From IMG/VR virus record IMGVR_UViG_2706794689_000010: a DNA stretch of 24,547 bases; one strand, written 5' to 3'. The number at the start of each line of letters is the position of its first letter. The first letter of the stretch is position 1. Shown piece by piece: positions 4,187 to 24,467 of this stretch. This DNA is from a virus (lineage: Duplodnaviria > Heunggongvirae > Uroviricota > Caudoviricetes). The notes beneath the pieces were generated by a model. The model saw only the letters and a list, made by a program, of their open reading frames with translations, was not told the DNA's origin and searched no databases. A program made the position numbers and the translations under genes.

Positions 4187-4196
4187 ATGCCCCCCA

Positions 4197-4218: not shown

Positions 4219-4228
4219 GTTTGAATGT

Positions 4229-5367: not shown

Positions 5368-5466
5368 TAATTAAATATTCCTTAAAAATTTGCGTAATTG
5401 TGAATAGATGGAGTAATGAGCTATCCAGCCCTGACACCAGCTCCCATCCGGAAGCTGACAAATGTG

Positions 5467-6011: not shown

Positions 6012-6301
6012 NNNNNNNNNNNNNNNNNNNNNNNNNNNNNNNNNNNNNNNNNNNNNNNNNNNNNNNNNNNNNNNNNNNNNNNNNNNNNNNNNNNNNNNNN
6101 NNNNNNNNNNNNNNNNNNNNNNNNNNNNNNNNNNNNNNNNNNNNNNNNNNNNNNNNNNNNNNNNNNNNNNNNNNNNNNNNNNNNNNNNNNNNNNNNNNNN
6201 NNNNNNNNNNNNNNNNNNNNNNNNNNNNNNNNNNNNNNNNNNNNNNNNNNNNNNNNNNNNNNNNNNNNNNNNNNNNNNNNNNNNNCCATCCGGATCGCAG
6301 C

Positions 6302-6329
6302 AATAAAAAAGGCCACCCGAAGGTAGCCT
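6302..6329 (-). terminator. rho-independent terminator (UUCG tetraloop) between Mu-F-like and scaffold genes
   Basis: Minus-strand transcript: aggcuacc-uucg-gguggccu (8-bp stem with one G-U pair) followed by uuuuuuauu. Confidence 0.5.
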
Positions 6330-6348
6330 GTTGTAATAAATGATTTAT

Positions 6349-7464
6349 TTAAATCCCTGCTTTTCTGAATACCTGTGCATCACGCTCACGGAGCTGCTTC
6401 AGCGTCAGCCATTCGCCTTTATCGGTGTAAAATTCATCTGGCGACATACCACCATCCCGAATCAGCTTTGCTCGGCTTTCCCCCACAATCTGTTTTTGTC
6501 TGGTGTAAGGCTGACGCAAAAACCATTCCCTGTAGGTTGTATCTCCGGCCACCACGCCATCCATGCTGGCCCGCTCAGCCGGGGAAATATCGCGAACATC
6601 AATACCCAGTTCCTTCGCTGATTTCAGAATGAACGTTTCCGTTGAGCGGCAGCAGAAATGAATTTTTCCCGGCCCCTGCAAATAAGGCACGCTGTGACCT
6701 ACAGGTTTATTATTCAGCGTATATTTGAGGCGATCCCTGATTCGACATTGTGGCGTAGTACGATTATCAAGCGTTGATAACCATTGCTTACCCTTAATCA
6801 AATCATTATTCGCGCTGGCAAAACTCTCACGGGCAGTAGCAGCAAGATGTCCAACCGCTGTTTTTGCAATGCTGGCCGCATTAGCCCGGCTCATCTGCAA
6901 TGCACCATCCTGAAATCCCTTACTGACATGTCCCCGAATTTTTCTTGCGATCTGCTCATTGGTATCCCCCAGCAAAAAACCCTGACGCACTGTATTTGTT
7001 ATGCGTCTGAGCCGATCCGCCTCAAGATCTGAGGCCCACTCACTGAGCAGTCGTCCCTGGAATGGTCGCGCCATTGCAGCGGCATAAAGTGCATCAGGAG
7101 AGATACCAACCAGAGGGTGAACATCAGCAACAAAATCAGGTAGCATAGAATCAAACAGACTTAACTGATAACCAGCCTCATAAATTGCCAGCTCGTTCAG
7201 CTCTCCGGAGAGACTGGTAAACATGCTGTTAATAGCAGTGCGGTTAACCTCTCTGACGCTCGCCAGAAGTGACTCCAGGCGCTTAACGGTAAAACTACCT
7301 GGATCGAGGCTGTCCAGTGCTATCAGCAGGCGAGCAGTAAGTTCCGCATCGCTGTCATTCAGTATTTTCACCATTCTGGCAGCCACGCCAGTGCTATAGC
7401 GGGATATCCAGACTGCATGAGCAATTGATTCATCACGCAGCCGTTCATTCACGGTTTGCATCAT
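6349..7464 (-). CDS. phage Mu F-like minor head (head morphogenesis) protein
   Basis: 371 aa; contains STLDNRTTPQCRIRDRLKY, typical of the Mu gpF / SPP1 gp7 family; directly follows the portal gene with a 20-nt overlap. Confidence 0.75.
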   Translation of the reverse strand: MMQTVNERLRDESIAHAVWISRYSTGVAARMVKILNDSDAELTARLLIALDSLDPGSFTVKRLESLLASVREVNRTAINSMFTSLSGELNELAIYEAGYQLSLFDSMLPDFVADVHPLVGISPDALYAAAMARPFQGRLLSEWASDLEADRLRRITNTVRQGFLLGDTNEQIARKIRGHVSKGFQDGALQMSRANAASIAKTAVGHLAATARESFASANNDLIKGKQWLSTLDNRTTPQCRIRDRLKYTLNNKPVGHSVPYLQGPGKIHFCCRSTETFILKSAKELGIDVRDISPAERASMDGVVAGDTTYREWFLRQPYTRQKQIVGESRAKLIRDGGMSPDEFYTDKGEWLTLKQLRERDAQVFRKAGI

Positions 7465-8851
7465 TGATTTCCATCAGCATTACACTCTGATTTTTTAATT
7501 CATCGATCACTTCCTCTGGACGGGAATCCTGATCGATAAATTTCAACGCCTGCAACACCCGAACCGCATCAATCTGACGTATATCACCGCCCTGACGCAA
7601 TGACTGAACAGCCAGCGCGGAGGATGAGTCAAACACCTGGGCAGATACATCCAGTTCAGTGCGCACATCCACATTGCCACCGCAACTCTCTCCGATCCAT
7701 TCCGCCATTATCTGGAGAATATTATCGAGGGCATCTTCGAGGGAGTTCGCCATTGTATAAAGCGGCGAGTTTTCCTGCATTCGCTCTTCATTAGTCTGAT
7801 CAACAGATTTGGTGGATGTATTTTCAGCACGCAGAAGTTTAGCGCCGGCATGACGCATCTGATTTTCCAGCTTCTCAAGTGATGTTTCGCCAGATTCTAT
7901 CGCTGCGCCACTATGTTCAACATATTCGAGGCCATTTTTTGTTCTGTCCTCAAAAATCGTAGCGGTGGATGCACCAACCGTCAGTTCTTCATTCCTGTCC
8001 AGCCCGTAGGCCACCAGCAATGGAACGCGGGCAACATGAAGAATATTGTCCTGCTCGCTCTGGCTTTGCCAGTGCTTGATATTCAGCAAGCCAAGATTAA
8101 GCAATGGCGGTGTACCACGCATAAATCCTGTTTTCTTCGTGTACAGTGTTACCAGAGGAATATCATCACGGCTGGTATTCCATGACTCATGAAGCGTCCA
8201 GACAGATTCGCCATTAGTGCCTTCGCTACGTCGATAAATTTCAACTCGACGGGGCATAATATGGCGGATCTGCTCCACCTTCTTCTGCCCGAAATCATCA
8301 CCATCAATAATGATGACCTCTTTTATACGCAAATCAGTGAGAACAACTTTCCCTTTTTCAACTTTCGATTTCCATCCAATAACCTGGCGTGGATTCAGCA
8401 TCGTAACGTACGGACGACCACCGGTCGCGTTTTCATCGGCTTTTGTCCGAATCTCTTTCATATCCGTTCGTGGATAGTCCACCAGCGCATGTGCCACACC
8501 ATACTGAAATGCGAGGCTGAAAAATTGCTGCGCCCACACATCCAGTCGGCTCCCCTCCATGTCGATATTTTCTGCATATTCCCTGATTTTTGCCGGCGTT
8601 TCCTCACTCAATACTGTCGGCTCTGCAAATATGCGCCCAATATTTTGCTTGATGCTTTCTTCATACACAGGAAGTAGCGTAGCCACAGACAGGCGTTTTT
8701 TATAAGCGTCTTCATCTTCGTTAGGCCATTTTGGGAGATAATTTTCCCCCTGCCTGCGCATTTCAAGCGTACCGCCCATCAGTGCGTCGTTAATATCCCA
8801 CGCCTCCAGCATATCGTTATAGTCGAGGTTGGGTGTTGATATATCAGCCAT
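7445..8851 (-). CDS. portal protein
   Basis: 468 aa, acidic; starts 3 nt after the TerL stop; size and position (TerL - portal - MuF) are canonical. Confidence 0.75.
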   Translation of the reverse strand: MADISTPNLDYNDMLEAWDINDALMGGTLEMRRQGENYLPKWPNEDEDAYKKRLSVATLLPVYEESIKQNIGRIFAEPTVLSEETPAKIREYAENIDMEGSRLDVWAQQFFSLAFQYGVAHALVDYPRTDMKEIRTKADENATGGRPYVTMLNPRQVIGWKSKVEKGKVVLTDLRIKEVIIIDGDDFGQKKVEQIRHIMPRRVEIYRRSEGTNGESVWTLHESWNTSRDDIPLVTLYTKKTGFMRGTPPLLNLGLLNIKHWQSQSEQDNILHVARVPLLVAYGLDRNEELTVGASTATIFEDRTKNGLEYVEHSGAAIESGETSLEKLENQMRHAGAKLLRAENTSTKSVDQTNEERMQENSPLYTMANSLEDALDNILQIMAEWIGESCGGNVDVRTELDVSAQVFDSSSALAVQSLRQGGDIRQIDAVRVLQALKFIDQDSRPEEVIDELKNQSVMLMEINDANRE

Positions 8852-8853
8852 AA

Positions 8854-10164
8854 TTAAATCCGAAGTGATGTGACTCTTCCGGTCGGTTTGACAATAGGGA
8901 ATTGCTTAACGATGAAATAACCTCCGGCATCATTCGGGTGATCATTGCCAGATTTTTTATCAGGCTCCCCCTTCTCATCCCAGACCTGTTGCTCCAGAGA
9001 TTCGGCATATAACGGGCAACGCTTCACATTAACTTTATAGCGACGCTCACCATTGGCATTGCAGAACATTGCATTCATTGAGTTAACGCGATCTTTTACT
9101 GGCGGGTTCGAGCTGTTCACCACAACGTTAAAACCAGCCTGCTTAAGCTGGGCTATATCCGTCGTACTTGCGTTACTTGATTTTCTGGAATCCCCGGAAG
9201 CATCTGGATAAATATAAATTTCCCTCACTTTCCGGTAATCATTCCCATCATACAGCCAGAAGCGTTCTTTAATGATGCGGATCATATCCGGCGTATCGTA
9301 GGCATTGATGATTTCAGTTACCGCACATGGAAGCCCCAAACGCAGCACATGGACGATTCCCGCCATCTTTCCAACGTTAAAATCCATCCCAATATAAATC
9401 GGCTCCCCTGGCTGCTCCACTTCTTCGCAATTATTCAGTTTCCGGTCAAACTGATGGTAAACAGTACCACTTGTCAGGTTAGTAAACTGTCCTCGAAGAT
9501 AGGCTTTAATCAGCTCTGGAGGGTATGATTCAAGAAGCGAAGGAATGTAATCTGCTGGCAGGTTCTTTTCATTATCGAAAGTAGATGCCTGCACCAGACC
9601 ATACAGTGAGGCCAGCTCTGTTTTTTCACGCACGGCTTTAACAAACTGCTCGTAGACAAATTTGAATCCTTCCGGCGTGGTTGTAACGTCAATACCGTTG
9701 CGAAGTCCATCAATCTTATAACGCATACGTGCAATTATCTTGCGCCACGCCGTTCTGGCTTTTTCCTTCGGCAAAATGTCCAGTTCATCCACCAACGCAT
9801 TACCAATTTTGAAACCGACGATCGTTTGTGGCTTCTCCATCGATCTGCAGATAGTGGTTCCCCGATACTGGCGTCCGTAATAAAAGTGAACCTCTTTATT
9901 TCCCTCATTAATTTTTACGTTCAATCCCCAGTCAGCAGCAACTTCTTCCACTGTAGGGTAAAAAATATCGCGAATTTGGGGATACGTTGGCGCAAAATAT
10001 CCCTGATTTATACCTGGATGCTCCCAAATCCCCTTGCATATGCCGCCACACCCAACCCATGTTTTGCCCGAGCCAAAACCAGCAATATAGGCTTTAAATT
10101 TATGGGGCATTGAAAGAAATCGCGCCTGAGGCACATTAAGCGTCGGAGAGATCATCTTCATCAC
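8854..10164 (-). CDS. terminase large subunit
   Basis: 436 aa with N-terminal Walker A P-loop (AYIAGFGSGKTWVG) and acidic C-terminal nuclease-like region (DHPNDAGGYF); overlaps TerS end. Confidence 0.85.
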   Translation of the reverse strand: MMKMISPTLNVPQARFLSMPHKFKAYIAGFGSGKTWVGCGGICKGIWEHPGINQGYFAPTYPQIRDIFYPTVEEVAADWGLNVKINEGNKEVHFYYGRQYRGTTICRSMEKPQTIVGFKIGNALVDELDILPKEKARTAWRKIIARMRYKIDGLRNGIDVTTTPEGFKFVYEQFVKAVREKTELASLYGLVQASTFDNEKNLPADYIPSLLESYPPELIKAYLRGQFTNLTSGTVYHQFDRKLNNCEEVEQPGEPIYIGMDFNVGKMAGIVHVLRLGLPCAVTEIINAYDTPDMIRIIKERFWLYDGNDYRKVREIYIYPDASGDSRKSSNASTTDIAQLKQAGFNVVVNSSNPPVKDRVNSMNAMFCNANGERRYKVNVKRCPLYAESLEQQVWDEKGEPDKKSGNDHPNDAGGYFIVKQFPIVKPTGRVTSLRI

Positions 10165-11230
10165 TCCTTACTCTGGCATCAACCACATTAATATTGATCG
10201 CCACAGGCTGGGGATGTTCATTATCTTCCACCGTTTCGATCTCTTTGCGCAGCTTCTGGTTTTCCATTCTGCGCCGTTCAATTTCCAGTTCCCGTAGCCG
10301 CTTATCTGCACATAAAGCCCCGCCAGCAGAAAACAAACGCAACAATTCACGCCGGGCGGCAGCCTTATCCTCCAGCAGGATCTCAACGCCGAATTTTCCG
10401 AATTTTGCCCCTGCATATAATTGCCGCGCATCCCCATCAAGCAGAGTGGTATCAGCCATATAAAGCTGTCCCGTTCCCTCACCGCAGCACTTCGGGCAGT
10501 CCGGATTGGGTATGGCGTTATCAACAAAGCCGAGGCCTCCATATTCCGGTTCGGGTTTGCCATCTCTGGAAGCCTGCGCCGCTGCCTTGTCGAATTCTGC
10601 TATATCGCGCCACTGGTAGAGATGATTCTCGCCCCAGCAATAACGGCAGTTAACACGGCGAAATTGTGCAAGCTGATTGGGGTCGGCCAGGACAATAGCC
10701 ATCAACTGACTCACTAGTAAATCCAGGTCTGCGGTATAGCGTTTCTGGTACTGATTGCGGAAGTAGCTGATAGCGCGAAAAACCCTGGCATTTCTAAGCA
10801 TACGACTGGCGTTGCTGTTAGCTGTCGCACCTTGCCCCTCATAACCGGCTAGTCGGTACGCCTCTGTCGGCTTTTTACCCTGAGCAACAAGCATCGCAAA
10901 CTTAGCCTGCTGGTCAGAAATGCCGAATTCATCGGGACAGAACGAAAATTCCTCCGCGTCGCCCTCATTCAGGCCCGCATCGAATACTGGCTTTTTTTCC
11001 TGAGATTTTTCGTTCCGCTTTTGTGCAGTCTGCGCAGATTTTTTCTGCGCACTTTTTTGCGCAGTTTTGCACATTTCTGTCTGCGCATTTTTCGGAGTTT
11101 TTTTGATGTAACGACGGGCTGTTGCGTAATTCAGTCCCCTTGCTTCACACCATGCCACCGGAGATATACCGGAGCGGGTGTATTCAGCAATATACTCCTG
11201 CTGCAACGCCCCCCAGTCCGGTCTGCTCAT
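10136..11230 (-). CDS. terminase small subunit (HTH N-terminus, Lys/Gln-rich linker, Cys4 zinc-ribbon-like motif)
   Basis: 364 aa; N-terminal HTH-like LQQEYIAEYTRSGISPVAWCEARGLNYATARRYIKK; CRYC...CPKCC cysteine pairs; immediately upstream of and overlapping TerL. Confidence 0.55.
   Translation of the reverse strand: MSRPDWGALQQEYIAEYTRSGISPVAWCEARGLNYATARRYIKKTPKNAQTEMCKTAQKSAQKKSAQTAQKRNEKSQEKKPVFDAGLNEGDAEEFSFCPDEFGISDQQAKFAMLVAQGKKPTEAYRLAGYEGQGATANSNASRMLRNARVFRAISYFRNQYQKRYTADLDLLVSQLMAIVLADPNQLAQFRRVNCRYCWGENHLYQWRDIAEFDKAAAQASRDGKPEPEYGGLGFVDNAIPNPDCPKCCGEGTGQLYMADTTLLDGDARQLYAGAKFGKFGVEILLEDKAAARRELLRLFSAGGALCADKRLRELEIERRRMENQKLRKEIETVEDNEHPQPVAININVVDARVRSDEDDLSDA
11025..11095. repeat. 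imperfect tandem repeats (c)tgcgca-N-tttttt, about 13-bp period, 4-5 copies, inside TerS 5' region
   Basis: Plus strand 11029-11092 reads tctgcgcagattttttctgcgcacttttttgcgcagttttgc...ctgcgcattttt; encodes the AQK-type protein repeat on the minus strand. Confidence 0.5.
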
Positions 11231-11233
11231 CAG

Positions 11234-11485
11234 TTAGTCCTGATTTTTATCCACCCTGAGTAGTTCGCGCAGAGCAAAGGCATCCCCTTTTCTGGCAAGC
11301 TTAAACAATGCCGCTCGTAACTCGGCTTCACCTTTCGCTCTGCCCTTACGGATGGCCGCATAAAAATCTGTCATTGCTTCCCGATTTTCTTTCAGTCGGT
11401 TCAGATCAACATCCAGAACGTCAGCGATTTGTTGTGCAGTCATCCGGCACGCTGCCAGAGACTCGACTTTCGAATACGGAATCAT
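11234..11485 (-). CDS. small HTH DNA-binding protein upstream of terminase
   Basis: 83 aa, MIPYSKVESLAACRMTAQQIADVLDVDLNRLKENREAMTDFYAAIRKGRAKGEAELRAALFKLARKG; GGGGGTGA RBS 4 nt upstream of ATG at 11485. Confidence 0.45.
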   Translation of the reverse strand: MIPYSKVESLAACRMTAQQIADVLDVDLNRLKENREAMTDFYAAIRKGRAKGEAELRAALFKLARKGDAFALRELLRVDKNQD

Positions 11486-12114
11486 TTGTCACCCCCATTG
11501 ATATGCAGGGTGTCTTCTTCCTGTATTTTTCGTGAAGGATTTTTACTGCAGCGTTGTTCCAGGTGACCTGATGGTGAATGCGTTTATGACTGGCACCCAT
11601 AAGTGAGATTTTTACGCACGACGGCGCATACATGACGGAGTAAAAACTTTTAACGTAGGTTCCGGAATCCAGATACAGCTCGGTCATTCCGCCGCTGTTT
11701 TTCTGCGTCTGTTTCTGCCCTAACTGGACAGCACCGATCGTCATAAACAATTCACCACAGCGACCGAGATTCGTGTACGTATTCACATCCTCGTTAATGC
11801 GCCCCATGAATGAGAACGGTCGATCAACCGAACAGATAAAGCTGTTCATTGCCTTGCGTTTCACCCACGAAGCATGGCCGCCATTGTCACCAAGAAAATC
11901 CCCGCCCTGCGACATAGCGATGGAAAGAGCAGGTATTGATTCGTAGTACGCAAGCATTTCAGAAAGGATCTCATCCAGTTTCCTTATCGGGAAATAGGCC
12001 TGGTCATAGTTGCGATCCACCCGAAACTGGAACTCGTGATAATCATCATCGAGCTGAATGAAGTATTTACACCCGACCAGTTTTGCCTGGTCGAAACAGG
12101 CATTACGGGCGTAA
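11421..12114 (-). CDS. hypothetical protein with DxD-like motif (FIQLDDDY); N-terminus hidden in N block 12115-12370
   Basis: Frame is open from the mask edge: ...YARNACFDQAKLVGCKYFIQLDDDYHEFQFRVDRNYDQAYFPIRKLDEILSEMLAYYESIPALSIAMSQGGDFLGDNGG...; the GTG start given by the track is internal. Confidence 0.4.
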
Positions 12115-12370
12115 NNNNNNNNNNNNNNNNNNNNNNNNNNNNNNNNNNNNNNNNNNNNNNNNNNNNNNNNNNNNNNNNNNNNNNNNNNNNNNNNNNNNNN
12201 NNNNNNNNNNNNNNNNNNNNNNNNNNNNNNNNNNNNNNNNNNNNNNNNNNNNNNNNNNNNNNNNNNNNNNNNNNNNNNNNNNNNNNNNNNNNNNNNNNNN
12301 NNNNNNNNNNNNNNNNNNNNNNNNNNNNNNNNNNNNNNNNNNNNNNNNNNNNNNNNNNNNNNNNNNNNNN

Positions 12371-12842
12371 CTCCCCGCCATGCATGATCTCCACCATGCG
12401 CTGCGTCATTCGGACAAATCCATTTTCAATAGCCTGCTGATAATCAATGATCACCAGCGCCGACTCCTCGAAAAGGCACTGAATTTCAGCGGGGGCATGA
12501 GCGTAATAGTCCGCAATTCTGCTGAAATTAAACACCGTGTGACGTTCTGCTGCACACAGGAGGAATTTCTCAATATCAGGATCAAGGGACGCCGAACGTA
12601 TCCGGCTGATCAGCTCCTGAGTTTTCGTATCGTCGTACAGTTCACTGATATCCGGTTTACCGCCTGACGGCTCATAAACAGGCGTATCAATTTTCGTCGT
12701 ATACGGCTCCTCCTCATTTCCTGTACCGGGCAAAACATCCGTCAACAGTTCATCAATTTCTGCCGGGATGAAGCCTGTCAGGGAGACATCAAAATCAGCA
12801 TTGATTAGGTCCGACAGCTCCATCCGCAACAGATCTTCATCC
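12371..12842 (-). CDS. hypothetical protein (both ends in N blocks)
   Basis: Open frame ...DEDLLRMELSDLINADFDVSLTGFIPAEIDELLTDVLPGTGNEEEPYTTKIDTPVYEPSGGKPDISELYDD...VRMTQRMVEIMHGGE; the TTG start given by the track is internal. Confidence 0.35.
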
Positions 12843-13142
12843 NNNNNNNNNNNNNNNNNNNNNNNNNNNNNNNNNNNNNNNNNNNNNNNNNNNNNNNNNN
12901 NNNNNNNNNNNNNNNNNNNNNNNNNNNNNNNNNNNNNNNNNNNNNNNNNNNNNNNNNNNNNNNNNNNNNNNNNNNNNNNNNNNNNNNNNNNNNNNNNNNN
13001 NNNNNNNNNNNNNNNNNNNNNNNNNNNNNNNNNNNNNNNNNNNNNNNNNNNNNNNNNNNNNNNNNNNNNNNNNNNNNNNNNNNNNNNNNNNNGGTGACAA
13101 TTCTTGTAATGGGCGATAGACTATCTTTAATTTCTCGCTCAT
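12837..13142 (-). CDS. ParB-like nuclease-domain protein, N-terminal gene or gene fragment
   Basis: ATG at 13142 with AAGG upstream; MSEKLKIVYRPLQELSP... resembles the start of ParB/Srx-fold nuclease domains; the rest is masked and the frame stops at 12837, out of frame with the downstream ORF. Confidence 0.3.
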   Translation of the reverse strand: MSEKLKIVYRPLQELSXXXXXXXXXXXXXXXXXXXXXXXXXXXXXXXXXXXXXXXXXXXXXXXXXXXXXXXXXXXXXXXXXXXXXXXXXXXXXXXXXXXXG

Positions 13143-13279
13143 ACAGCCTTGCTTTATGAATAAAACGCACCCCAGCAGCCAGTGCTACTGGGGGCGGAGG
13201 TGTTGCTGGTAAAGTTAGGTATTGGATCAATGAGTGAGTCAACATAATATTAAACTCACAATTATAAATCAGCCATATA

Positions 13280-14632
13280 TTAGGAGCGCCAAAAAAAACC
13301 TGAAAACAATATAATAACAGGATAAATTTCAAGGCGACCAAGAATCATAGCTATGCACATTAAATATTTTGCAATGTCATTAAGCACTCCGAATGACGAT
13401 GCAGTAGCCCCAAAACCTAATCCCATATTATTAATACATGCAGCCACTGTTGCAAATGATGTAAGAAAATCATATCCCATACCATTTAACACCAGTATAA
13501 AAAACACCGTGAAGAGAGTATAAAGAAAAAAGAAACTCCATACAGACCTCATTACACGATCTGTAACTATCTTCCCTCCTACATTTACACTCAACAACGC
13601 TCTGGGATGAGAAAGCTGATTTATCTCGTGTTTGCTTTGTTTGAAAAGTATAAGAAATCGAAGTGACTTAATTCCACCACAGGTTGAACCTATACATCCC
13701 CCAAAGAAACTTGACAACAGCAAAAACACTATCGTGTGCGTGGGCCAGTTTGCATAATCCTGCGTAGCTAAACCATTATCAGTGAGCATGGAGCTGGCAA
13801 GAAAAAACGAATGAATAAAACTTCCATGCAAGTCATACATACCTATATGCCAGACCTGGAAAGAGGTAACAATGATCACCCCTAAGGCTATTAACAGAAA
13901 GAAACGAAGTTCAATATCTCTGATTAAAGGTTTTATCGTTTTTCTGCTAATAACAATATACCAAAGAGTGAAGTTGAAAGCCGATAGCAGGGAAAAAGAA
14001 CCAGCCACCAGCTCAACCAAATAGTTATTAAAATATCCGATACTCTCGCTATGAGTTGAGAAACCACCAAGCGAAACTGTGGAAATCCCGTGACAAATAG
14101 CATCAAACAAAGGCATTCCTGCAAGTCTATAACAGACAATACAAGCAATACCTAATAAAGAATAAGTTATCCACAGTGTCCGTGACGTATCGGCCAGGCG
14201 GGGAGTGAGTTTGTCATCCTTAAATGGCCCCGGCATTTCTGACTGATAAAGCTTTGCACCACCAATACCCAATAATGGCAATACTGCAACCGCCAGAACA
14301 ATAACTCCTAAACCACCTATAAAATTTAACTGTGACCGATAGTACAAATATGCCCGAGGTAATGAACTAACATCATCAATTACAGTTGCTCCTGTTGTTG
14401 TTATTCCAGAAACCCCTTCAAACAGAGCATCAATGAACGTTAAATTAAGTTCTGAGTCAATCCATAAAGGGAATGCACTAATAACAGAAAACAAAATCCA
14501 AAACATTACAATTATAATAAACCCATCACGGGTACGTAATTGAATGCCAGATTTCTTAGTTGTATACCACGCTCCGCCACCAATGCAAAAAAATATAACG
14601 AAAGTTATAAAGAAAACGAACAGGCTTTTTTC
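13280..14632 (-). CDS. trkG: Trk-system K+ uptake protein TrkG/TrkH family (N-terminus in N block 14633-14885)
   Basis: Polytopic membrane protein with repeated pore-loop glycine motifs (SGITTTGATV, GGLGVIVLAVAVLPLLGIGGAKLYQSEMPGP, GGFSTH, FGGCIGSTCGGIKSLRFLILFKQ) typical of TrkH/TrkG; A/T-rich codon usage; sits directly downstream of Rz/Rz1 as trkG does in Rac. Confidence 0.8.
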   Translation of the reverse strand, partial: EKSLFVFFITFVIFFCIGGGAWYTTKKSGIQLRTRDGFIIIVMFWILFSVISAFPLWIDSELNLTFIDALFEGVSGITTTGATVIDDVSSLPRAYLYYRSQLNFIGGLGVIVLAVAVLPLLGIGGAKLYQSEMPGPFKDDKLTPRLADTSRTLWITYSLLGIACIVCYRLAGMPLFDAICHGISTVSLGGFSTHSESIGYFNNYLVELVAGSFSLLSAFNFTLWYIVISRKTIKPLIRDIELRFFLLIALGVIIVTSFQVWHIGMYDLHGSFIHSFFLASSMLTDNGLATQDYANWPTHTIVFLLLSSFFGGCIGSTCGGIKSLRFLILFKQSKHEINQLSHPRALLSVNVGGKIVTDRVMRSVWSFFFLYTLFTVFFILVLNGMGYDFLTSFATVAACINNMGLGFGATASSFGVLNDIAKYLMCIAMILGRLEIYPVIILFSGFFWRS

Positions 14633-14886
14633 NNNNNNNNNNNNNNNNNNNNNNNNNNNNNNNNNNNNNNNNNNNNNNNNNNNNNNNNNNNNNNNNNNNN
14701 NNNNNNNNNNNNNNNNNNNNNNNNNNNNNNNNNNNNNNNNNNNNNNNNNNNNNNNNNNNNNNNNNNNNNNNNNNNNNNNNNNNNNNNNNNNNNNNNNNNN
14801 NNNNNNNNNNNNNNNNNNNNNNNNNNNNNNNNNNNNNNNNNNNNNNNNNNNNNNNNNNNNNNNNNNNNNNNNNNNNNNNNNNNNNT

Positions 14887-15351
14887 TTACTTTAAACACT
14901 GCTCGGTTATGTATTGCTGAGCACCTTCAAGTTGGGCCTGCATCATTACCAGTCGTTCCCGGAGGGTGAAATAATCCCGTTCAGCGGTGTCTGCCAGTCG
15001 GGGGGAGGCTGCATTATCCACGCCGGAGGCGGTGGTGGCTTCACGCACTGACTGACAGACTGCTTTGATGTGCAACCGACGACGACCAGCGGCAACATCA
15101 TCACGCAGAGCATCATTTTCAGCTTTCGCATCAGCTAACTCCTTCGTGTATTTTGCATCGAGCGCAGCAACATCACGCTGACGCATCTGCATGTCAGTAA
15201 TTGCCGCGTTCGCCAGCTTCAGTTCTCTGGCATTTTTGTCGCGCTGGGCTTTGTAGGTAATGGCGTTATCACGGTAATGATTAACAGCCCATGACAGGCA
15301 GACGATGATGCAGATAACCAGAGCGGAGATAATCGCGGTTACTCTGTTCAT
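14887..15351 (-). CDS. Rz: Rz i-spanin
   Basis: [68 protein letters not shown]... is near-identical to lambda Rz as recalled; N-terminal TM segment; start overlaps the endolysin stop. Confidence 0.9.
14946..15131 (-). CDS. Rz1: Rz1 o-spanin lipoprotein (embedded in Rz, +1 frame)
   Basis: [57 protein letters not shown]: lipobox VVGC plus proline-rich stretch, matching lambda Rz1. Confidence 0.85.
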
Positions 15352-15845
15352 TGCTGACCCCACAAACAGATTTCACGCTCAATCTCACGACGAGTCATGA
15401 GACCTTTCCATTGCTTACCGCCAGCATATGTCCAGCGACGTAGCTGATCACATGCGCCTTTGATATCGCCCTGGTTTATTTTGCGAAGAAGCGTCGATGT
15501 TCTGAAATTACCAGCACCCACGTTGTAAACGAACGAGTAAAGAGCGCCGCGCGTTGTTTCCGGTATATCGACTTTGATGTACGGGTTAATTTGTCTGGCG
15601 ACAGTGGCAAGGTCTTTATTCAAGAGTGTTTTGCATTCTGCTTTGGTATACGTTTTACCGAGCATGATGTCTTTTCCTGTATGCCCGTGACATACAGTCC
15701 ATACACCAACAATATCTTTGTATGGTATGTAGCTGACACCTTCCAGACCATCGTTACCACTTGGGCCAGTGATTAACACTGATGCTATAGCAATTGCTCC
15801 GCCACCAATAGCAGCAGCAACGACTTTTCGTAATGATGGAGGCAT
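15348..15845 (-). CDS. R: SAR endolysin (phage 21 R-type lysozyme)
   Basis: [44 protein letters not shown]...: Gly/Ala-rich N-terminal signal-arrest-release segment followed by a lysozyme domain; start overlaps holin stop. Confidence 0.9.
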
Positions 15846-16060
15846 TATTCACCTCTCGCAGCCTTGCGCTTATCTTCTTTAATCTTGAAATAAAGGTTTG
15901 TCAGGTACGTCAGCAGGCCAAATACCAGACTACCCAGCACACCGATTGCAGCCCACTGTGACGGAGTTACTCTATCGAGCAACTGTAAAAACCAGTAGCC
16001 AGCACTGCCTGCGGAGGTGCCGTAGGCAATGCCTGTTGAAATTTTGTCCATGGATTTCAT
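15845..16060 (-). CDS. S: class II holin / pinholin (phage 21 S-type) with dual-start motif MKSM
   Basis: 71 aa [71 protein letters not shown]; two TM segments; GGAGG RBS; the track's longer N-terminal extension has no RBS. Confidence 0.9.
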
Positions 16061-16162
16061 AGCCTCACCTCCGCACGGAACGGATGGCATAGTTATTATG
16101 TGTAGGCTTTCAGACACATCAATCAGAGCCTTAATTGATATATATGCTGGAGACGATGCAAT

Positions 16163-16187
16163 ATAAAAAGCTCGCCGTAGCGAGCTA
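16163..16187 (-). terminator. rho-independent terminator downstream of the TolA-domain gene pair
   Basis: Stem gctcgc/gcgagc (16170-16175 / 16180-16185) with cgta loop; U-run follows on the minus-strand transcript. Confidence 0.5.
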
Positions 16188-16311
16188 ATAAAATGTATTT
16201 CTCTGATATTATGTTTATTTGTATTAGCTCAGACTTGACATCACAGGTTTCGTATATAGAACATCATCAAATCTGTCAGTTTGCTATGAATGAGATATAG
16301 TAATTGAAGAG

Positions 16312-16551
16312 CTAACCTCGCATGTCAAAGCCAGATTTCTGAAAATCTCTGTAGACTTCCGGATTGTTGAAGGCCGGAAATTTGGCTTTATGAGCTGCGG
16401 ACTTTATCGCTTCGCAATAGGCTTTATCACCGTTACTGGTAGATATTTTTAACGCCGTGCCATCCTGAGAGAATTCCATATGCAACCTGCATTTTTTCCC
16501 TTTCCAGTTATGCGGCTCATCAAGTTTGGCATTAATTGCAGCTCTGATTCC
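16312..16551 (-). CDS. TolA C-terminal (domain III)-like protein, second copy; N-terminus hidden in N block
   Basis: Visible C-terminal 79 aa GIRAAINAKLDEPHNWKGKKCRLHMEFSQDGTALKISTSNGDKAYCEAIKSAAHKAKFPAFNNPEVYRDFQ align with the TolA domain III pattern (GK.C.L......G.L......GD...C.A...A..KA..P....VY..F). Confidence 0.55.
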   Translation of the reverse strand, partial: GIRAAINAKLDEPHNWKGKKCRLHMEFSQDGTALKISTSNGDKAYCEAIKSAAHKAKFPAFNNPEVYRDFQKSGFDMRG

Positions 16552-16804
16552 NNNNNNNNNNNNNNNNNNNNNNNNNNNNNNNNNNNNNNNNNNNNNNNNN
16601 NNNNNNNNNNNNNNNNNNNNNNNNNNNNNNNNNNNNNNNNNNNNNNNNNNNNNNNNNNNNNNNNNNNNNNNNNNNNNNNNNNNNNNNNNNNNNNNNNNNN
16701 NNNNNNNNNNNNNNNNNNNNNNNNNNNNNNNNNNNNNNNNNNNNNNNNNNNNNNNNNNNNNNNNNNNNNNNNNNNNNNNNNNNNNNNNNNNNNNNNNNNN
16801 NNNN

Positions 16805-17212
16805 CCCATTTTGAAATACTTTATATACTTCCGGCGAAGGGGGGGCAGGTATATCAGCATTCTTTATCGCATTCATCGCTTCACGACATAAATCGAGGTC
16901 TCCACTTTCTCTTTTAACCTCCAGTAGAAGGCCATTCGGGGCCATATGCATTCTCAGTGTACACTCTTTTCCTGAATACTTACTCGCATCCCCGAACTGT
17001 TTTTCGATGGCGCTCTTGATTTGATGGGCATACAGACGGATATCCTCACTAACATCAGAAGTACGTTCAGATGAACTCACATACTGTGTCTCTATTGCTT
17101 TATCGGAGTAATATGATGTACGGTCATGATAATTTGTCGATACAGCATCAGTGCACCCGATAATAATCCCACTAATAATCAACGTAAGAATTGATGCGCT
17201 ACGAAAACCCAT
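16805..17212 (-). CDS. lipoprotein with TolA C-terminal (domain III)-like domain; C-terminus hidden in N block
   Basis: Signal peptide and lipobox MGFRSASILTLIISGIIIGC; then LYAHQIKSAIEKQFGDASKYSGKECTLRMHMAPNGLLLEVKRESGDLDLCREAMNAIKNADIPAPPSPEVYKVFQNG, which matches the remembered E. coli TolA C-terminus (YAGQIKSAIESKFYDASSYAGKTCTLRIKLAPDGMLLDIKPEGGDPALCQAALAAAKLAKIPKPPSQAVYEVFKN); GAGGAAAA RBS. Confidence 0.65.
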
Positions 17213-17241
17213 TTTTCCTCACATATGTCATATAGTAAAGG

Positions 17242-17271
17242 ATTATATATACCGTTGTTTTGGACGCTCAA
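17242..17271 (-). promoter_or_regulatory. candidate sigma70 promoter for the TolA-domain genes
   Basis: On the minus strand TTGAGC (plus 17266-17271), 18-bp spacer, TATAAT (plus 17242-17247), about 30 nt upstream of the ATG at 17212. Confidence 0.3.
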
Positions 17272-17801
17272 ACAGCGAATCAGATCAAATAAAACGCACA
17301 TTTGTTAACATTTACACAAAGTCTGCGTGGGATATTCTGAAAGAATATCCATAATGTGGAGAGAATCTATTGAAGTGCATGGTGCCGGGTGCCTCCCGGT
17401 GAACAAAATGTTCGTGATACCTGTCGGCGACAGAAAAGGTTAATGGTATCACCCCACCGCACAGGGGGATTCACCATGCAGGAGTTTTCTTAGCAAACTC
17501 ACTGCGCGCCCGGCAACTCCCAACCACATAAAATGCGGAGTTTGTGGCATTTATGCATATAACTCGCAGGAATTATCTTAAAAAACTGATGTCGATCCGG
17601 ATTAAAAAGAAGCAGGTCATCATCAGATGACTGGAAAAAAGGAAAACAAAAAATACTCATCATACAGTTTTGATTGCAGGGATGAGCCTGCTATGCACAA
17701 TATGCAGAATATAAGCAAGATAAAAATATGCAGGCATATTATTTCGGATCTTGTTATTAACACAACCTTTTTAATAATCATTTGGCATACAATAAACCAG
17801 C

Positions 17802-17829
17802 CCAAAAAGAACCGCCTAAACAGGCGGTT
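17802..17829 (-). terminator. rho-independent terminator inside the Q-S intergenic region
   Basis: Stem aaccgcc/ggcggtt (17810-17816 / 17823-17829) with 6-nt loop; cuuuuu follows on the minus-strand transcript only. Confidence 0.4.
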
Positions 17830-18149
17830 GGTCAATACAAAGGATGCTTCGTCTTTATTATAGTAATCTGAGGCGTCGGGTGTCTTGTATCAGACAACAT
17901 ATTGTCCCGCTAAACAGCGAATTACAAACCACCCTGCAATGATCTCTCATCTCATTTTATATGAGTTGACGACATCAGGATAACGCATCATCAGCCCCTG
18001 CCAAGAAATATCAAAACTCCCGCCAGCAATGTGTTATCACAATATTGTAAAAAAAACACAGCACCGAAACTATAACTGGTCTCTGTTATAATTTGGAGCA
18101 GAAAGACCAGTTGCCCAACTAGCAGCATTCTCCCCTGCTTTCCTGACGT

Positions 18150-18177
18150 AAAAAAACCGCATTAAGCGGTTTTTTTA
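18150..18177. terminator. bidirectional rho-independent terminator (tR'-like) about 80 nt downstream of the Q-like gene
   Basis: aaaaaa-accgc-attaa-gcggt-tttttt: perfect hairpin flanked by an A-run and a T-run. Confidence 0.6.
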
Positions 18178-18231
18178 CGATGTCCATGTCTGCAATCCGC
18201 CTCGCGATACAGCTTTGCGAAGCATAGCAAA

Positions 18232-18260
18232 ATTGAAGCAGTTTATACGTAAGAAATCAA
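18232..18260 (-). promoter_or_regulatory. candidate late promoter PR' (Q-dependent), overlapping the Q stop codon
   Basis: Minus strand TTGATT, 17 bp, TTCAAT; a transcript from here would reach the tR'-like hairpin after about 55-70 nt, like the lambda PR'-6S-tR' arrangement. Confidence 0.3.
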
Positions 18261-18799
18261 GCCATTTTCTCAGCAAATGATTCACGCATGGGAATATATA
18301 GGGCATACTCAGCAACAGCTAACCAATTAGCAATCCGTTTTTCGCATGTGCTAAAACACCACTCTGGGTGTGCATCATTTAGCAATTCAGCCATTTTGCG
18401 CTTAGTCATCCCCCGCCCTTCATAGCGTTGCCGGAGAATGCAAATCAATCCTGGATGCTCTGCCAGCACCTCACTTATGACTCGATCAATACATAACGCC
18501 TCTGCATCAGTACAATGCGCCAGCCAGCTCTTTTGCTTGCCGTTGATCATCTCTCGCAAAAACGCTTCCAGCTCAGCTTTCTCTATTCCCGCTTTTTTCA
18601 TTCTGCGCAGGGCTTCATTAATGGCTGTTTTCGTCAGTTTTTTGGATGCCAACAACTGATTGAACATATTCCCTGACCTGCCACCGCCAATATACGACCA
18701 GCGCCCCCACATACGTAGTTTTCCCTGAATCCAGACACTTTCCAGCGTGGTGAGGCGAAGGTGTTCTCCGCTTTTTCCTGTATTCGTTGGGTAAATCAT
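18257..18799 (-). CDS. putative antiterminator Q-like protein
   Basis: 180 aa, MIYPTNTGKSGEHLRLTTLESVWIQGKLRMWGRWSYIGGG...; located between a ybcO-like nin gene and a promoter/terminator pair just upstream of the lysis cassette. Family assignment is by position and a weak WGxW-type resemblance only. Confidence 0.45.
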   Translation of the reverse strand: MIYPTNTGKSGEHLRLTTLESVWIQGKLRMWGRWSYIGGGRSGNMFNQLLASKKLTKTAINEALRRMKKAGIEKAELEAFLREMINGKQKSWLAHCTDAEALCIDRVISEVLAEHPGLICILRQRYEGRGMTKRKMAELLNDAHPEWCFSTCEKRIANWLAVAEYALYIPMRESFAEKMA

Positions 18800-18968
18800 A
18801 AATGACCTTTCTTTCTCCAGATTTCTTGTGTGCGAAAAACCCCTTCAGCATGCATCAGGCGCAATTCTTCTTTGGTGTAATCGCTGGTTTTTACCCGCCC
18901 GTCGATTAGATCGTGGCATGAGCTACAGGCTATCGCCGCCTGCATATCATGTGGTTTTGTCGCTGTTC
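18796..18968 (-). CDS. YbcO-like (DUF1364) nin-region protein, C-terminal part (start in N block)
   Basis: ...RLAGTCGTATKPHDMQAAIACSSCHDLIDGRVKTSDYTKEELRLMHAEGVFRTQEIWRKKGHL matches the remembered DLP12 YbcO C-terminus (CGTGTKPPDLIATIACSACHDEIDRR...EGMARTQVIWLKEG); stop overlaps the Q-like start. Confidence 0.55.
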
Positions 18969-19770
18969 CGCACGTCCCCGCCAGCCTGNNNNNNNNNNNN
19001 NNNNNNNNNNNNNNNNNNNNNNNNNNNNNNNNNNNNNNNNNNNNNNNNNNNNNNNNNNNNNNNNNNNNNNNNNNNNNNNNNNNNNNNNNNNNNNNNNNNN
19101 NNNNNNNNNNNNNNNNNNNNNNNNNNNNNNNNNNNNNNNNNNNNNNNNNNNNNNNNNNNNNNNNNNNNNNNNNNNNNNNNNNNNNNNNNNNNNNNNNNNN
19201 NNNNNNNNNNNNNNNNNNNNNNNNNNNNNNNNNNNNNNNNNNNNNNNNNNNNNNNNNNNNNNNNNNNNNNNNNNNNNNNNNAACGAAACCAGACAGCAGT
19301 TCTCGTTCGCGAGGCGTGNNNNNNNNNNNNNNNNNNNNNNNNNNNNNNNNNNNNNNNNNNNNNNNNNNNNNNNNNNNNNNNNNNNNNNNNNNNNNNNNNN
19401 NNNNNNNNNNNNNNNNNNNNNNNNNNNNNNNNNNNNNNNNNNNNNNNNNNNNNNNNNNNNNNNNNNNNNNNNNNNNNNNNNNNNNNNNNNNNNNNNNNNN
19501 NNNNNNNNNNNNNNNNNNNNNNNNNNNNNNNNNNNNNNNNNNNNNNNNNNNNNNNNNNNNNNNNNNNNNNNGTAAAGCCCCACATAGCATGAACAAACAC
19601 TACATATCAAATAGCTGGTACAAGGATAGAAATACGACACTTATTATTAAAAACGATTAGATAAATTACATTTTAATGTTATGCAAAAGTTCTTTTTTAT
19701 CATAACATTTCAATAAAAGCATTACAGATGCAATCATCCCGTCATCATCAATTATTTAAGGTGGTTAAAC

Positions 19771-19857
19771 ATGGAAAATAACAAGTTCGCACATCTCGCT
19801 CCTTTTTTATCCGTAATCCTTTTCGCTTGTTGTTTTATATGGGCATTATTTTTATAA
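19771..19857 (+). CDS. candidate small hydrophobic peptide (28 aa)
   Basis: AAGGTGG RBS 6 nt upstream of ATG; MENNKFAHLAPFLSVILFACCFIWALFL; in an A/T-rich intergenic island on the plus strand. Confidence 0.3.
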   Translation: MENNKFAHLAPFLSVILFACCFIWALFL

Positions 19858-20258
19858 AGTAGCCACATGATAAGTTGCTGGAATCATATTTCCCACTCAA
19901 GTCATTAACATTTGATAAGATATATCTAAAAGGACGCCTTTACATTATTTATGCGTNNNNNNNNNNNNNNNNNNNNNNNNNNNNNNNNNNNNNNNNNNNN
20001 NNNNNNNNNNNNNNNNNNNNNNNNNNNNNNNNNNNNNNNNNNNNNNNNNNNNNNNNNNNNNNNNNNNNNNNNNNNNNNNNNNNNNNNNNNNNNNNNNNNN
20101 NNNNNNNNNNNNNNNNNNNNNNNNNNNNNNNNNNNNNNNNNNNNNNNNNNNNNNNNNNNNNNNNNNNNNNNNNNNNNNNNNNNNNNNNNNNNNNNNNNNN
20201 NNNNNNNNNNNCTATCTTCTCCTCTAATCAACATATCAATTATGTGTTTCATAACAGC

Positions 20259-20300
20259 TTGACATAACCCTCCAAAAGATGCATTTTTAATGCATGTTTT
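20259..20300 (+). promoter_or_regulatory. promoter (-35 TTGACA at 20259-20264) with overlapping NsrR-type inverted-repeat operator
   Basis: AAGATGCATTT-T-TAATGCATGTT (20276-20298), core ATGCATT-ttt-AATGCAT, resembles the remembered NsrR consensus; ends 15 nt upstream of the yeaR-like start codon. Confidence 0.45.
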
Positions 20301-20313
20301 GGAGGAGGTGGTT

Positions 20314-20652
20314 ATGACACACAAGAGAATTCCTAAAGATTGGGTAATCAAACGCTCAACTCCGTTCTTCACAAAAGAGAACGTACCTTCAGCGTTATTA
20401 ACACATCATAATACAGCAGCAGGTGTTTTTGGGCAGTTGTGCGTAATGGAAGGCACTGTAACATATTATGGTTTTACTGATGAGAATGCTACTGAACCGG
20501 AGATAAAAGTAGTCATTAATGCTGGCGCTTTTGCAACAAGCCCACCACAATACTGGCACCGTGTTGAACTAAGCGATGATGCTCAGTTTAATATTAACTT
20601 TTGGGTCGCTCCAGACTTTTCGGGCGAAAAAGTCTATAGCACCAAAAAATAG
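20314..20652 (+). CDS. YeaR-like protein (DUF1971, TehB C-terminal-domain family)
   Basis: GGAGGAGG RBS 5 nt upstream; MTHKRIPKDWVIKRSTPFFTKENVPSALLTHHNTAAGVFGQLCVMEGTVTYYGFTDENATEPEIKVVINAGAFATSPPQYWHRVELSDDAQFNINFWVAPDF parallels remembered E. coli YeaR; only substantial plus-strand gene in the window. Confidence 0.6.
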   Translation: MTHKRIPKDWVIKRSTPFFTKENVPSALLTHHNTAAGVFGQLCVMEGTVTYYGFTDENATEPEIKVVINAGAFATSPPQYWHRVELSDDAQFNINFWVAPDFSGEKVYSTKK

Positions 20653-20681
20653 ATGATCATATTAAAAATGCTTTAACAGTC

Positions 20682-20718
20682 AGACCCGGCAGGGCTATCC
20701 CCGACGGGTCTCATTTTT
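20682..20718 (+). terminator. rho-independent terminator after yeaR-like gene
   Basis: agacccg...cgggtct hairpin followed by cattttt. Confidence 0.5.
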
Positions 20719-20870
20719 GTAAATATATTGGTTCTACATTGACAGGAGACTTCAACCATAAGAAGTAATCTGAATACTTGAGCAATAAATTTACTTAAGA
20801 TTAATGAGCGCACCTTGCCGGACAAAGATAAACCAAGGTAACACCTTTTTTCTAGCCAGTATGTAATCAA

Positions 20871-21089
20871 TCAGAAAGCCGCTCCATAAGAACAACAGCA
20901 AGACAATAAATTGCCATTACAGCCGCAATAGCCAGCGCACATTTGAGAACCAGCACGACAACCCCCTGTATTAGACGCACACCAGTCCTGATAAATATGA
21001 GGCTGTCTCGTCAGTGATTCAATACAACTATTGGGTATAGTTTCTGTGATTTTATTCTGTAGAAATGGAACACAACAACCAGTCACCAC
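20871..21089 (-). CDS. candidate Cys/Gly-rich small protein (about 72 aa)
   Basis: AAGGAA then GTG 6 nt downstream; ...VVTGCCVPFLQNKITETIPNSCIESLTRQPHIYQDWCASNTGGCRAGSQMCAGYCGCNGNLLSCCCSYGAAF (about 12 Cys); could equally be a chance ORF. Confidence 0.2.
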   Translation of the reverse strand: MVTGCCVPFLQNKITETIPNSCIESLTRQPHIYQDWCASNTGGCRAGSQMCAGYCGCNGNLLSCCCSYGAAF

Positions 21090-21272
21090 CAGCACTTCCT
21101 TAAATGCTCTAAGTCAGAAACAAGCCAACATTTTAGTCCGCTTTGAGCGATCTGCAGACATTGCTAGCAGCCTTCTGTGTGAATTCTCAGGGAGCAGGTC
21201 GGCATAGCATCACGTTGAGGCTCTTACCCTACTTGTTCACACCAACCCTAACTCCACAGACTGATTCATAAA

Positions 21273-22274: not shown

Positions 22275-22289
22275 GTATGACCTGCGCTA

Positions 22290-23123: not shown

Positions 23124-23475
23124 NNNNNNNNNNNNNNNNNNNNNNNNNNNNNNNNNNNNNNNNNNNNNNNNNNNNNNNNNNNNNNNNNNNNNNNNNNNNN
23201 NNNNNNNNNNNNNNNNNNNNNNNNNNNNNNNNNNNNNNNNNNNNNNNNNNNNNNNNNNNNNNNNNNNNNNNNNNNNNNNNNNNNNNNNNNNNNNNNNNNN
23301 NNNNNNNNNNNNNNNNNNNNNNNNNNNNNNNNNNNNNNNNNNNNNNNNNNNNNNNNNNNNNNNNNNNNNNNNNNNNNNNNNCTATTGGCACAAAGCGGAC
23401 AACCACGCTAGCTCTCCCCTGTGCCAGAAAAATGTCAATTTACATATGAACTAATGCTCTTTGATCTAGTAACGT

Positions 23476-24444: not shown

Positions 24445-24467
24445 AAAAATTTCCTCCCGGTAAAAAT

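Follow-up and report, generated by a model that had tools for sequence, protein, structure and literature searches.

The K+ transporter gene trkG as low-GC cargo at the lysis/packaging junction of a full-size Rac prophage

Overview of the trkG Locus

The window analysed here, a stretch of 24,547 nt of viral DNA, carries the ion transporter gene trkG between phage lysis genes and phage packaging genes. This gene is almost certainly a single-gene, low-GC cargo at the lysis/packaging junction of full-size Rac, and it encodes the ion-conducting membrane subunit of the second Trk K+ uptake system of E. coli. Judged by its match to sequenced genomes, the window is the Rac prophage itself in its full-size form. 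The genes all lie on the same (minus) strand, with Rz/Rz1 upstream of trkG and the ParB-like, terminase, portal and head genes downstream. The coordinates of the main features are listed in Table 1.

Table 1. Features around trkG in the window, and the three deletions of K-12 Rac in coordinates of the E. coli NCTC10444 prophage locus (L002)
Feature	Coordinates	Strand	Description
Holin (essD-like, P21 S family)	15845..16060	minus	Pfam PF04971, E = 4.5e-35; essD in NCTC10444 (L002)
Endolysin (rrrD-like lysozyme)	15348..15845	minus	Pfam PF00959, E = 1.8e-45; rrrD in NCTC10444 (L002)
Rz (i-spanin)	14887..15351	minus	Pfam PF03245 Phage_lysis, E = 3.7e-53; "lysis protein" in NCTC10444 (L002)
Rz1 (o-spanin lipoprotein), within Rz	14946..15131	minus	61-aa ORF in another frame; corresponds to rzoR of K-12 (L003 15401-15586) by aligned position
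N mask	14633..14885	minus	hides trkG codons 1-35 and the 137-nt AT-rich Rz-trkG spacer (candidate promoter region)
trkG, visible part	13280..14632	minus	codons 36-485 and stop; 450 open codons, 1353 nt
trkG stop codon	13280-13282	minus	
trkG-ParB spacer	13143..13279	minus	137 nt, from trkG stop to ParB-like start; right cassette edge at about 13196-13212
GC-rich hairpin with T-run, terminator-like	13160..13193	minus	close upstream of the ParB-like gene; stem of 10 pairs (7 G-C), tail TGCGTTTTAT
ParB/Srx-like gene, intact form of K-12 ynaK	12356..13142	minus	partly masked, lower coordinate approximate; Pfam ParB_N, phrog_620
Terminase small subunit	10136-11230	minus	Pfam, NCTC10444 (L002) annotation
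Terminase large subunit	8854-10155	minus	Pfam, NCTC10444 (L002) annotation
K-12 deletion	L002 27299-36421		9123 bp; first 20 nt of Rz, endolysin, holin and Q-like gene, as far as ydaW
K-12 deletion	L002 13311-24867		11557 bp; most of the ParB-like gene, terminase, portal, head and tail-tube genes, up to ydaY
K-12 deletion	L002 3183-11550		8368 bp; tape measure to lom

Full-Size Rac Prophage and Its K-12 Counterpart

The whole window matched E. coli NCTC10444 at 99.9%, with every unmasked base included in the match. The matching region is a prophage of approximately 47 kb at ttcA, where intR, xisR, recE and recT abut ttcA. The prophage begins with intR, xisR, ralR, recT, recE, racC, kilR and sieB, followed by the immunity region, ydaT, ydaU, ydaV, nin-like genes and a Q-like gene (DUF1133). 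The lysis genes essD, rrrD and Rz/Rz1 come next, and then trkG. The genes for the ParB-like protein, a TAGT-like protein, TerS, TerL, portal, minor head protein, scaffold-like protein and P22-type capsid protein follow, and the order ends with head-tail genes, tail tube, ydaY, tape measure, tail tip protein J, lom and a tail-fibre gene. Seven genomes covered at least 80% of the whole window at 99.6–99.9% identity, and trkG was annotated in each match. The ParB-like gene encodes 262 aa; it is open in NCTC10444 and in all visible parts of the window. The terminase genes (8854..11230), with the Pfam domains Terminase_2, Terminase_6N and Terminase_6C, form the start of the packaging/head module. 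The TAGT-like protein and two low-GC hypothetical proteins gave no match to a defence system in PADLOC.

The Rac prophage of E. coli K-12 was collinear with the NCTC10444 prophage at 98–99.9% identity, except for a swapped immunity region and the three deletions in Table 1. Positions 1-1310, 13093-14632, 14886-15331 and 23995-24547 of the window matched K-12 Rac at 94.6–99.9% in the same order, and positions 1311-12888 and 15332-23994 are absent from K-12. Two of the deletions flank a kept piece of 2.4 kb, Rz'-trkG-ynaK', which corresponds to window positions of approximately 12889-15331 (2431 real bp). The terminase region falls within the 11.6-kb deletion, and its module is lost from K-12 Rac. 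K-12 trkG (b1363) is the same gene with an identical 137-nt leader, and it shares its neighbours Rz/Rz1 upstream and ynaK downstream. Around this shared core, K-12 Rac has only 'rzpR and an 87-aa ynaK and is without the endolysin, holin, Q-like, terminase, portal, head and tail genes, whereas the full-size Rac described here has a complete Rz, endolysin, holin, Q-like gene, 262-aa ParB-like gene, terminase, portal, head and tail genes.

Truncated genes were found at every K-12 junction, namely the pseudogene rzpR, ynaK (87 of 262 aa) and ynaA, a tape-measure remnant. Because all junctions carry truncated genes, the K-12 form appears to be the derived one, by loss in K-12 and not by gain in the window. 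K-12 Rac would be a deletion derivative that lost DNA on both sides of the 2.4-kb Rz'-trkG-ynaK' piece. An earlier note on this DNA had suggested that the window may show the ancestral, complete context of the Rac trkG gene. The 99.9% match to a full-size Rac and the K-12 deletions with their truncated genes bear out the complete context, and from the truncations we infer that the full-size form is ancestral to K-12 Rac.

Frequency of trkG and Its Context

The trkG gene was present in 1551 of 5426 complete E. coli genomes. Among these 5426 genomes, the sequence was uninterrupted across the K-12 ynaK junction in 990, the K-12-type ynaK'/ydaY junction was found in 348 and the K-12-type ydaW'/'rzpR junction in 338. 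The complete context is thus commoner than the K-12 form at the ynaK junction. To cover trkG together with the packaging/head module, a 12.4-kb query was used, which extends from ydaY across the tail-tube, head, packaging and ParB genes and includes the 3' end of trkG. At least 80% of this query was held by 709 of the 5426 genomes, which carry trkG and most of the module.

The Rz-trkG-ParB-terminase arrangement was also seen in ten GenBank phage records, all of them in-silico prophage predictions from clinical isolates. The IMG/VR collection contained 80 loci encoding the ParB-like protein, and 71 of them carried trkG. The Rz-trkG spacer was 137 nt in all Rac loci of this collection (68/68), and the trkG-ParB spacer was likewise 137 nt in 70 of 70 loci.

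Base Composition and the Cargo Slot

The GC content of trkG was 0.379 (37.9%) and its GC3 was 0.322 (32.2%). The flanking phage genes had a GC content of 45.5–51.8% and a GC3 of 40–54%, and K-12 trkH had 53.1% and 62.7%, respectively. The 137-nt leader of trkG was lower still in GC (0.255). Codon usage was compared by GC3 and by the fraction of rare codons. The description of trkG as low-GC cargo in the earlier note therefore stands, with trkG below its flanking genes in both GC and GC3. The GC content of 38% (vs 53%) and the location in Rac have been used in the literature to argue for a foreign origin of trkG (PMC9898762).

In the related ParB/terminase loci, 9 of 80 were without trkG. These nine carry another lysis cassette (holin_8, holin_3_7, M15 endolysin), their slot holds other small ORFs, and they are homologous to Rac only from L002 25175-25191, that is, window positions 13196-13212, 54–70 nt upstream of the ParB start. 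This places the right edge of the cassette. On the left side, the Rac Rz is near-identical to rzpD of DLP12 until approximately 70 nt before the stop codon, then diverges, and no similarity remains past the stop. An exact empty site, in which the same Rz is joined directly to ParB, was searched for and none was found, so the left boundary is only approximate. The cassette would measure about 1.66 kb, made up of the 137-nt AT-rich leader, the 1458-nt gene and a trailer of about 67 nt. The terminator-like hairpin at 13160-13193 (fold −25.5 kcal/mol, z = −3.8) belongs to the backbone, on the packaging-module side of the point where homology resumes, so the trkG cassette may have no terminator of its own.

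The earlier note had placed trkG immediately after the spanin genes, as in Rac. The position downstream of Rz/Rz1 was confirmed. In NCTC10444, however, a spacer of 137 nt with 25.5% GC separates the Rz stop codon from trkG, so that trkG does not directly abut Rz.

The trkG cassette has a composition off the backbone and is absent from some otherwise homologous phage loci, as expected of a moron or lysogenic-conversion cassette. Other morons at the lysis/packaging junction of lambdoid phages likewise occupy the slot between the lysis genes and terminase, differ in composition from the backbone and are missing from related phages. The LT-IIa toxin genes of Rac-SA53 lie in the same lysis-to-terminase slot as trkG, and so does borD, which follows rzpD in DLP12. 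Cargo genes are thus already known from the lysis/packaging junction. The cargo itself is of another kind: in contrast to toxin or surface lipoprotein morons, trkG encodes a large polytopic ion transporter that joins a host complex (TrkA).

Proposed Expression and Role of trkG

Identity, composition, synteny, deletions, distribution and cassette boundaries are results of this analysis; transport activity, TrkA dependence, H-NS control and promoter activity are taken from published work on K-12. In that work, K-12 TrkG requires the host protein TrkA, can replace TrkH, conducts Na+, and mediates a Na+-activated K+ uptake with half-activation at approximately 2 mM Na+ (PMC9898762). The K-12 gene is partly repressed by H-NS and StpA, and a reporter was driven by a cloned K-12 fragment that the authors named the trkG promoter (PMC9898762).

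We propose that in the lysogen trkG has a promoter of its own within the AT-rich leader, from which it is transcribed under partial repression by H-NS. TrkG would insert in the inner membrane and use the host TrkA gating ring, which would give Na+-activated K+ uptake. The effect of carrying trkG would be lysogenic conversion. The 137-nt leader does not differ between K-12 and the full-size prophage of NCTC10444, which makes expression from the leader in the lysogen the best-supported model. A sigma-70 consensus scan of the region showed no enrichment (6 sites vs 6.2 expected from shuffles). In lytic growth, Q-antiterminated late transcription would be expected to read through trkG too, because trkG is part of the late operon and points the same way as the genes beside it.

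The same position raises the question of whether trkG serves mainly the phage in lytic growth, as a late gene that adjusts K+/Na+ flux or the membrane potential at about the time when DNA is packaged and the holin triggers. Such a role would fit its place in the late operon, where Rz on one side and the packaging genes on the other share its orientation, and also its retention, at constant spacer lengths, in prophages with apparently intact late genes. We nevertheless consider a mainly lytic role unlikely. The gene is equally conserved and functional in K-12 Rac, which is without Q, holin, endolysin and structural genes (PMC9898762), and without induction its promoter is active and its expression steady (PMC9898762).

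Reading Frame of trkG and the N Mask

The translation of the visible part of trkG was open throughout, with 450 uninterrupted codons. The window contains twelve N masks of approximately 250 nt each, and one of them (14633-14885) lies inside the ORF of 13280-14899 to which the earlier note had assigned the gene. Alignment to near-identical genomes showed that the 253 N of this mask stand for 241 real nt (NCTC10444, L002 26612-26852), and that the 273 N of another mask stand for 498 nt. Because mask length does not equal real length, reading frames across a mask are meaningless. The ORF of 539 codons with a GTG start at 13280-14899 was rejected as an artefact, since a run of N cannot hold a stop codon and the mask has the wrong length; the run happens to link trkG to a GTG beside the Rz stop codon. 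The family and the lower end at 13280 given in the earlier note were correct, and the upper end at 14899 was produced by the mask.

The trkG gene of the 99.9% identical NCTC10444 locus is 1458 nt long and encodes 485 aa, with an ATG 105 nt inside the mask. The earlier note had called the gene full-length. The window alone shows 450 open codons, with codons 1-35 hidden, and the length of 485 aa is that in NCTC10444. Both the intactness of these codons and the promoter in the leader are readable only from near-identical genomes.

It is very unlikely that the copy in the window is a pseudogene broken in its masked 5' end. The mask does cover 105 nt of coding sequence, and 4 of 70 full-length trkG copies in the Rac-like loci of IMG/VR were frameshifted. 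The other 66 of these 70 copies were intact, however, and all 450 codons that can be read are open and match an intact allele exactly. The seven genomes at 99.6–99.9% identity over at least 80% of the window, with trkG annotated in all of them, also point to an intact gene.

Identity of TrkG and Its Family

The 450 visible residues were 100% identical to TrkG of E. coli H1 and NCTC10444 (WP_001097893.1). Compared with K-12 TrkG, 448 of the 450 visible residues were identical, and the only changes were N330S and Y458C. Over the full length, TrkG of NCTC10444 and of K-12 shared 483 of 485 residues, and the two genes differed by 10 nt and 2 aa. Both alleles, N330/Y458 in the window and S330/C458 in K-12, are common. 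Residue 330 reportedly makes contact with D327. Window positions 13100-14632, from the visible trkG to just upstream of the ParB-like start, matched the 1551 complete genomes counted above and were at least 99% identical in 1516 records, all annotated as trkG. The identity to TrkH of E. coli K-12 was 41%. The closest homologues are thus the trkG copies of Rac (99–100%) and not chromosomal trkH genes. On this level of identity, the gene in the window is trkG itself, the orthologue of b1363, and not merely a trkG-like gene.

The family profiles were run on the complete TrkG protein of NCTC10444 (locus identity 99.9%), of which the window shows residues 36-485. The protein matched Pfam PF02386 (TrkH) over residues 40-483 with 483 bits (cut-off 27) and TIGR00933 with 415 bits (cut-off 331). 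The score for the NCBIfam TrkH equivalog NF008020 was 452 bits, below the cut-off of 866. TrkG aligned end to end with the solved TrkH structures of Vibrio parahaemolyticus (E = 2e-121). The pore-loop glycines of the four loops, G116 (TTTG), G225 (LGGFS), G322 (TDNG) and G439 (NNMG), are all unmasked, as are D327 and R468. The four glycines and R468, which lies in the ILGRLE motif near the C-terminus, align with TrkH of E. coli and V. parahaemolyticus. TrkG therefore shares the family, the fold-level architecture, the four glycine pore loops and R468 with TrkH of these two species (PDB 3PJZ, 4J9U), and it differs from E. coli TrkH in its 41% identity and its score under the TrkH equivalog cut-off. 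By profile and alignment, TrkG is a paralogue of TrkH and a member of the TrkH/TrkG cation transporter family. The published contrasts with TrkH are the Na+-dependent K+ uptake and the Na+ permeation of TrkG, in which D327 is implicated (PMC9898762). A search of the trkG region against Rfam had no match at E ≤ 0.1.

The closest proteins outside Rac were TrkG-clade paralogues of the same length with 62–79% identity, far closer than TrkH. They were found in E. fergusonii (79%, beside porin genes), Citrobacter (77%, in a variable island), a Pectobacterium-like genome (76%, after ychF), Enterobacter (70%, near parC), Serratia (66%, in a mobile island) and Xenorhabdus (62%, between lipB and dacA). 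Each stands at a different chromosomal site and none in a prophage, and no phage genes are nearby except for the Serratia mobile island. Their GC content (42–57%) is always above the 38% of Rac trkG. These varied non-prophage sites suggest that Rac picked up a member of a widespread second clade of Trk paralogues. A protein search of phage collections for other phage-borne Trk genes returned only Rac-type records; the remaining matches were unannotated short contigs or bacterial contigs with TrkH at 30–43% identity.

That the gene is an orthologue of chromosomal trkH, or some TrkH-family gene that lies beside phage genes by chance and not as cargo, has next to no probability left: the next-closest relatives outside Rac are indeed chromosomal and non-prophage, with the Serratia copy in its mobile island, but the 41% identity to E. 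coli TrkH, the equivalog score, the same-strand phage late genes on both sides in a prophage bounded by intR/ttcA (NCTC10444), and the 71 of 80 related phage loci that carry trkG with identical spacers refute it.

The reading of trkG as lysogen-expressed cargo of Rac leaves room for two wider speculations, which we hold with low confidence. In a full-size and possibly inducible Rac, trkG may function as a late gene and help the phage through its Na+-activated K+ conductance, for example by sustaining K+ and membrane potential in packaging or by tuning the timing of the holin. Alternatively, the TrkG clade may be a self-contained single-gene cassette that has inserted repeatedly, at different sites, in the chromosomes of Enterobacterales and was brought into E. 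coli by Rac.

Relation to Earlier Work and Significance

The Rac location, the low GC content and the function of trkG have been textbook knowledge for decades. Schlosser reportedly described the Rac location and the foreign origin of trkG in 1991. That work on trkG is reference 33 of PMC9898762. The content of Rac is mosaic and variable, and trkG and recE are its best-conserved genes (PMC5700373). Sp10 and CP-933R are among the Rac-like prophages that have been reported at ttcA (PMC4632033), and "full-sized Rac-like prophages" have been described by Jobling (PMC5917428).

The arrangement found in the window is already known, since it appears in the annotation of hundreds of RefSeq genomes as well as of GenBank prophage records, and the presence of trkG in full-size Rac is real but ordinary. 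The analysis has three by-products for the biology of Rac. It gives a clean map of the three deletions that turn full-size Rac into the K-12 remnant, it provides approximate boundaries for the trkG cassette, and its counts place the complete context above the K-12 form in frequency.

Distribution and alleles of trkG

A Rac fragment is present on the C. freundii plasmid pA18-1 (NZ_CP022274.1, 112564-114295) with 99.5% identity. The same fragment occurs on 14 other plasmids, giving 15 in all, with E. coli, Citrobacter, Klebsiella, and Enterobacter as hosts. It contains Rz, the 137-nt leader, and an intact trkG, with a tail-fibre assembly gene nearby, and is surrounded by Tn3, IS26, and IS5 elements. 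These plasmids are large, and 12 of the 15 were predicted to be conjugative.

The chromosomal paralogues of the TrkG clade in other Enterobacterales (L006, L009, L010, L011, L013, and L015) had 62–79% identity to Rac TrkG and a GC content of 42% to 57%. Their site differs for each genus examined, and none of the six loci lies in a prophage; the Serratia copy is inside a mobile island. A TrkG with 88% identity was found at the edge of an E. albertii-type contig (L098). The genes after it (NleF-like, metallophosphatase, and DUF1482) are typical of lambdoid prophages. Because these lambdoid-type genes adjoin it, the diverged trkG may be carried by another prophage in E. albertii.

Two TrkG residues distinguish the alleles: the window encodes N330/Y458, and K-12 encodes S330/C458. 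Among 70 IMG/VR copies, 27 were N/Y, 30 were S/C, and 9 were S/Y. Residue 330 is reported to contact D327, the residue implicated in Na+ activation (PMC9898762).

Rac-SA53 (KU052037.1) is a Rac-like prophage that is also integrated at ttcA. Its lysis-to-terminase slot, where Rac has trkG, is occupied by LT-IIa enterotoxin genes (23488-24628). The two prophages share the cargo position; the late region of Rac-SA53 is unrelated.

The ParB-like and glycosyltransferase-like genes

Two genes lie between trkG and the terminase genes. The first encodes a ParB/Srx-like protein of 262 aa that is also similar to phage DNA methyltransferases, namely to their N-terminal portion (phrog_498; PADLOC MTase_II, E = 1.5e-38). 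The other gene encodes a 310-aa protein that matches the TET-associated glycosyltransferase family over its full length (PF20691, E = 3.7e-34; phrog_842). The pair could be a DNA-modification module of the full-size Rac prophage. In K-12, only an 87-aa ynaK stub of the pair is left.

The RefSeq annotation of NCTC10444, which carries the full-size prophage (L002), lists ynaK as a C-terminally truncated pseudogene. The ParB-like ORF of 262 codons is actually intact in that strain, and in the window it is open wherever the sequence is unmasked. The truncated K-12 YnaK seems to have been taken as the reference for the pseudogene call.

The window contains 12 N masks of approximately 250 nt each. 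Mask length does not equal the length of the real sequence replaced; for example, one mask of 273 N replaces 498 nt and one of 253 N replaces 241 nt. ORFs, frames, and GC values are unreliable where they cross masks, and the points of very low GC along the composition profile are mask artefacts.

Coordinates of features in the window and in the full-size Rac prophage of E. coli NCTC10444 (L002)
Feature	Window	L002	Strand	Match or location
ydaY	959-1318	12959-13318	-	phrog_313 (tail assembly chaperones), E = 1e-37
ParB-like/glycosyltransferase-like pair	11421-13142	23408-25121	-	directly 3' of trkG
ynaK, RefSeq pseudogene	about 12356-13142	24333-25121
TrkG codon 458	13364-13366
TrkG codon 330	13748-13750
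TolA C-terminal-domain protein with the tolA-like pseudogene fragment	16312 onwards	28279-29085	-	PF06519 for the TolA C-terminal-domain protein, E = 1.1e-14
sRNA family STnc100	17323-17509		-	Rfam, 86.6 bits vs gathering score 47
Two adjoining hypothetical genes	21273-22274 and 22290 to about 23250	33500-35479	-	early/nin region
N masks, first six	1545-1796, 2121-2371, 6012-6285, 12115-12370, 12843-13092, 14633-14885
N masks, last six	16552-16804, 18989-19281, 19319-19571, 19957-20211, 23124-23381, 23608-23880

Other genes and candidate cargo

The ydaY gene, listed as uncharacterised in K-12, is flanked in the full-size prophage by the tail tube gene and the tape measure gene, a placement expected of a tail assembly chaperone. 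The STnc100 match has a Q-like gene on one side and the lysis genes on the other.

The two adjoining hypothetical genes of the early/nin region encode proteins of 333 and 320 aa and have low GC contents (39% and 36%). They showed only sub-threshold matches (GNAT; HEPN/RES N-terminal domain), and the PADLOC search returned no match for them. This low-GC pair may be further cargo. The TolA C-terminal-domain gene is accompanied by a tolA-like pseudogene fragment. Both lie in the interval bounded by the Q-like and holin genes, which is another cargo position.
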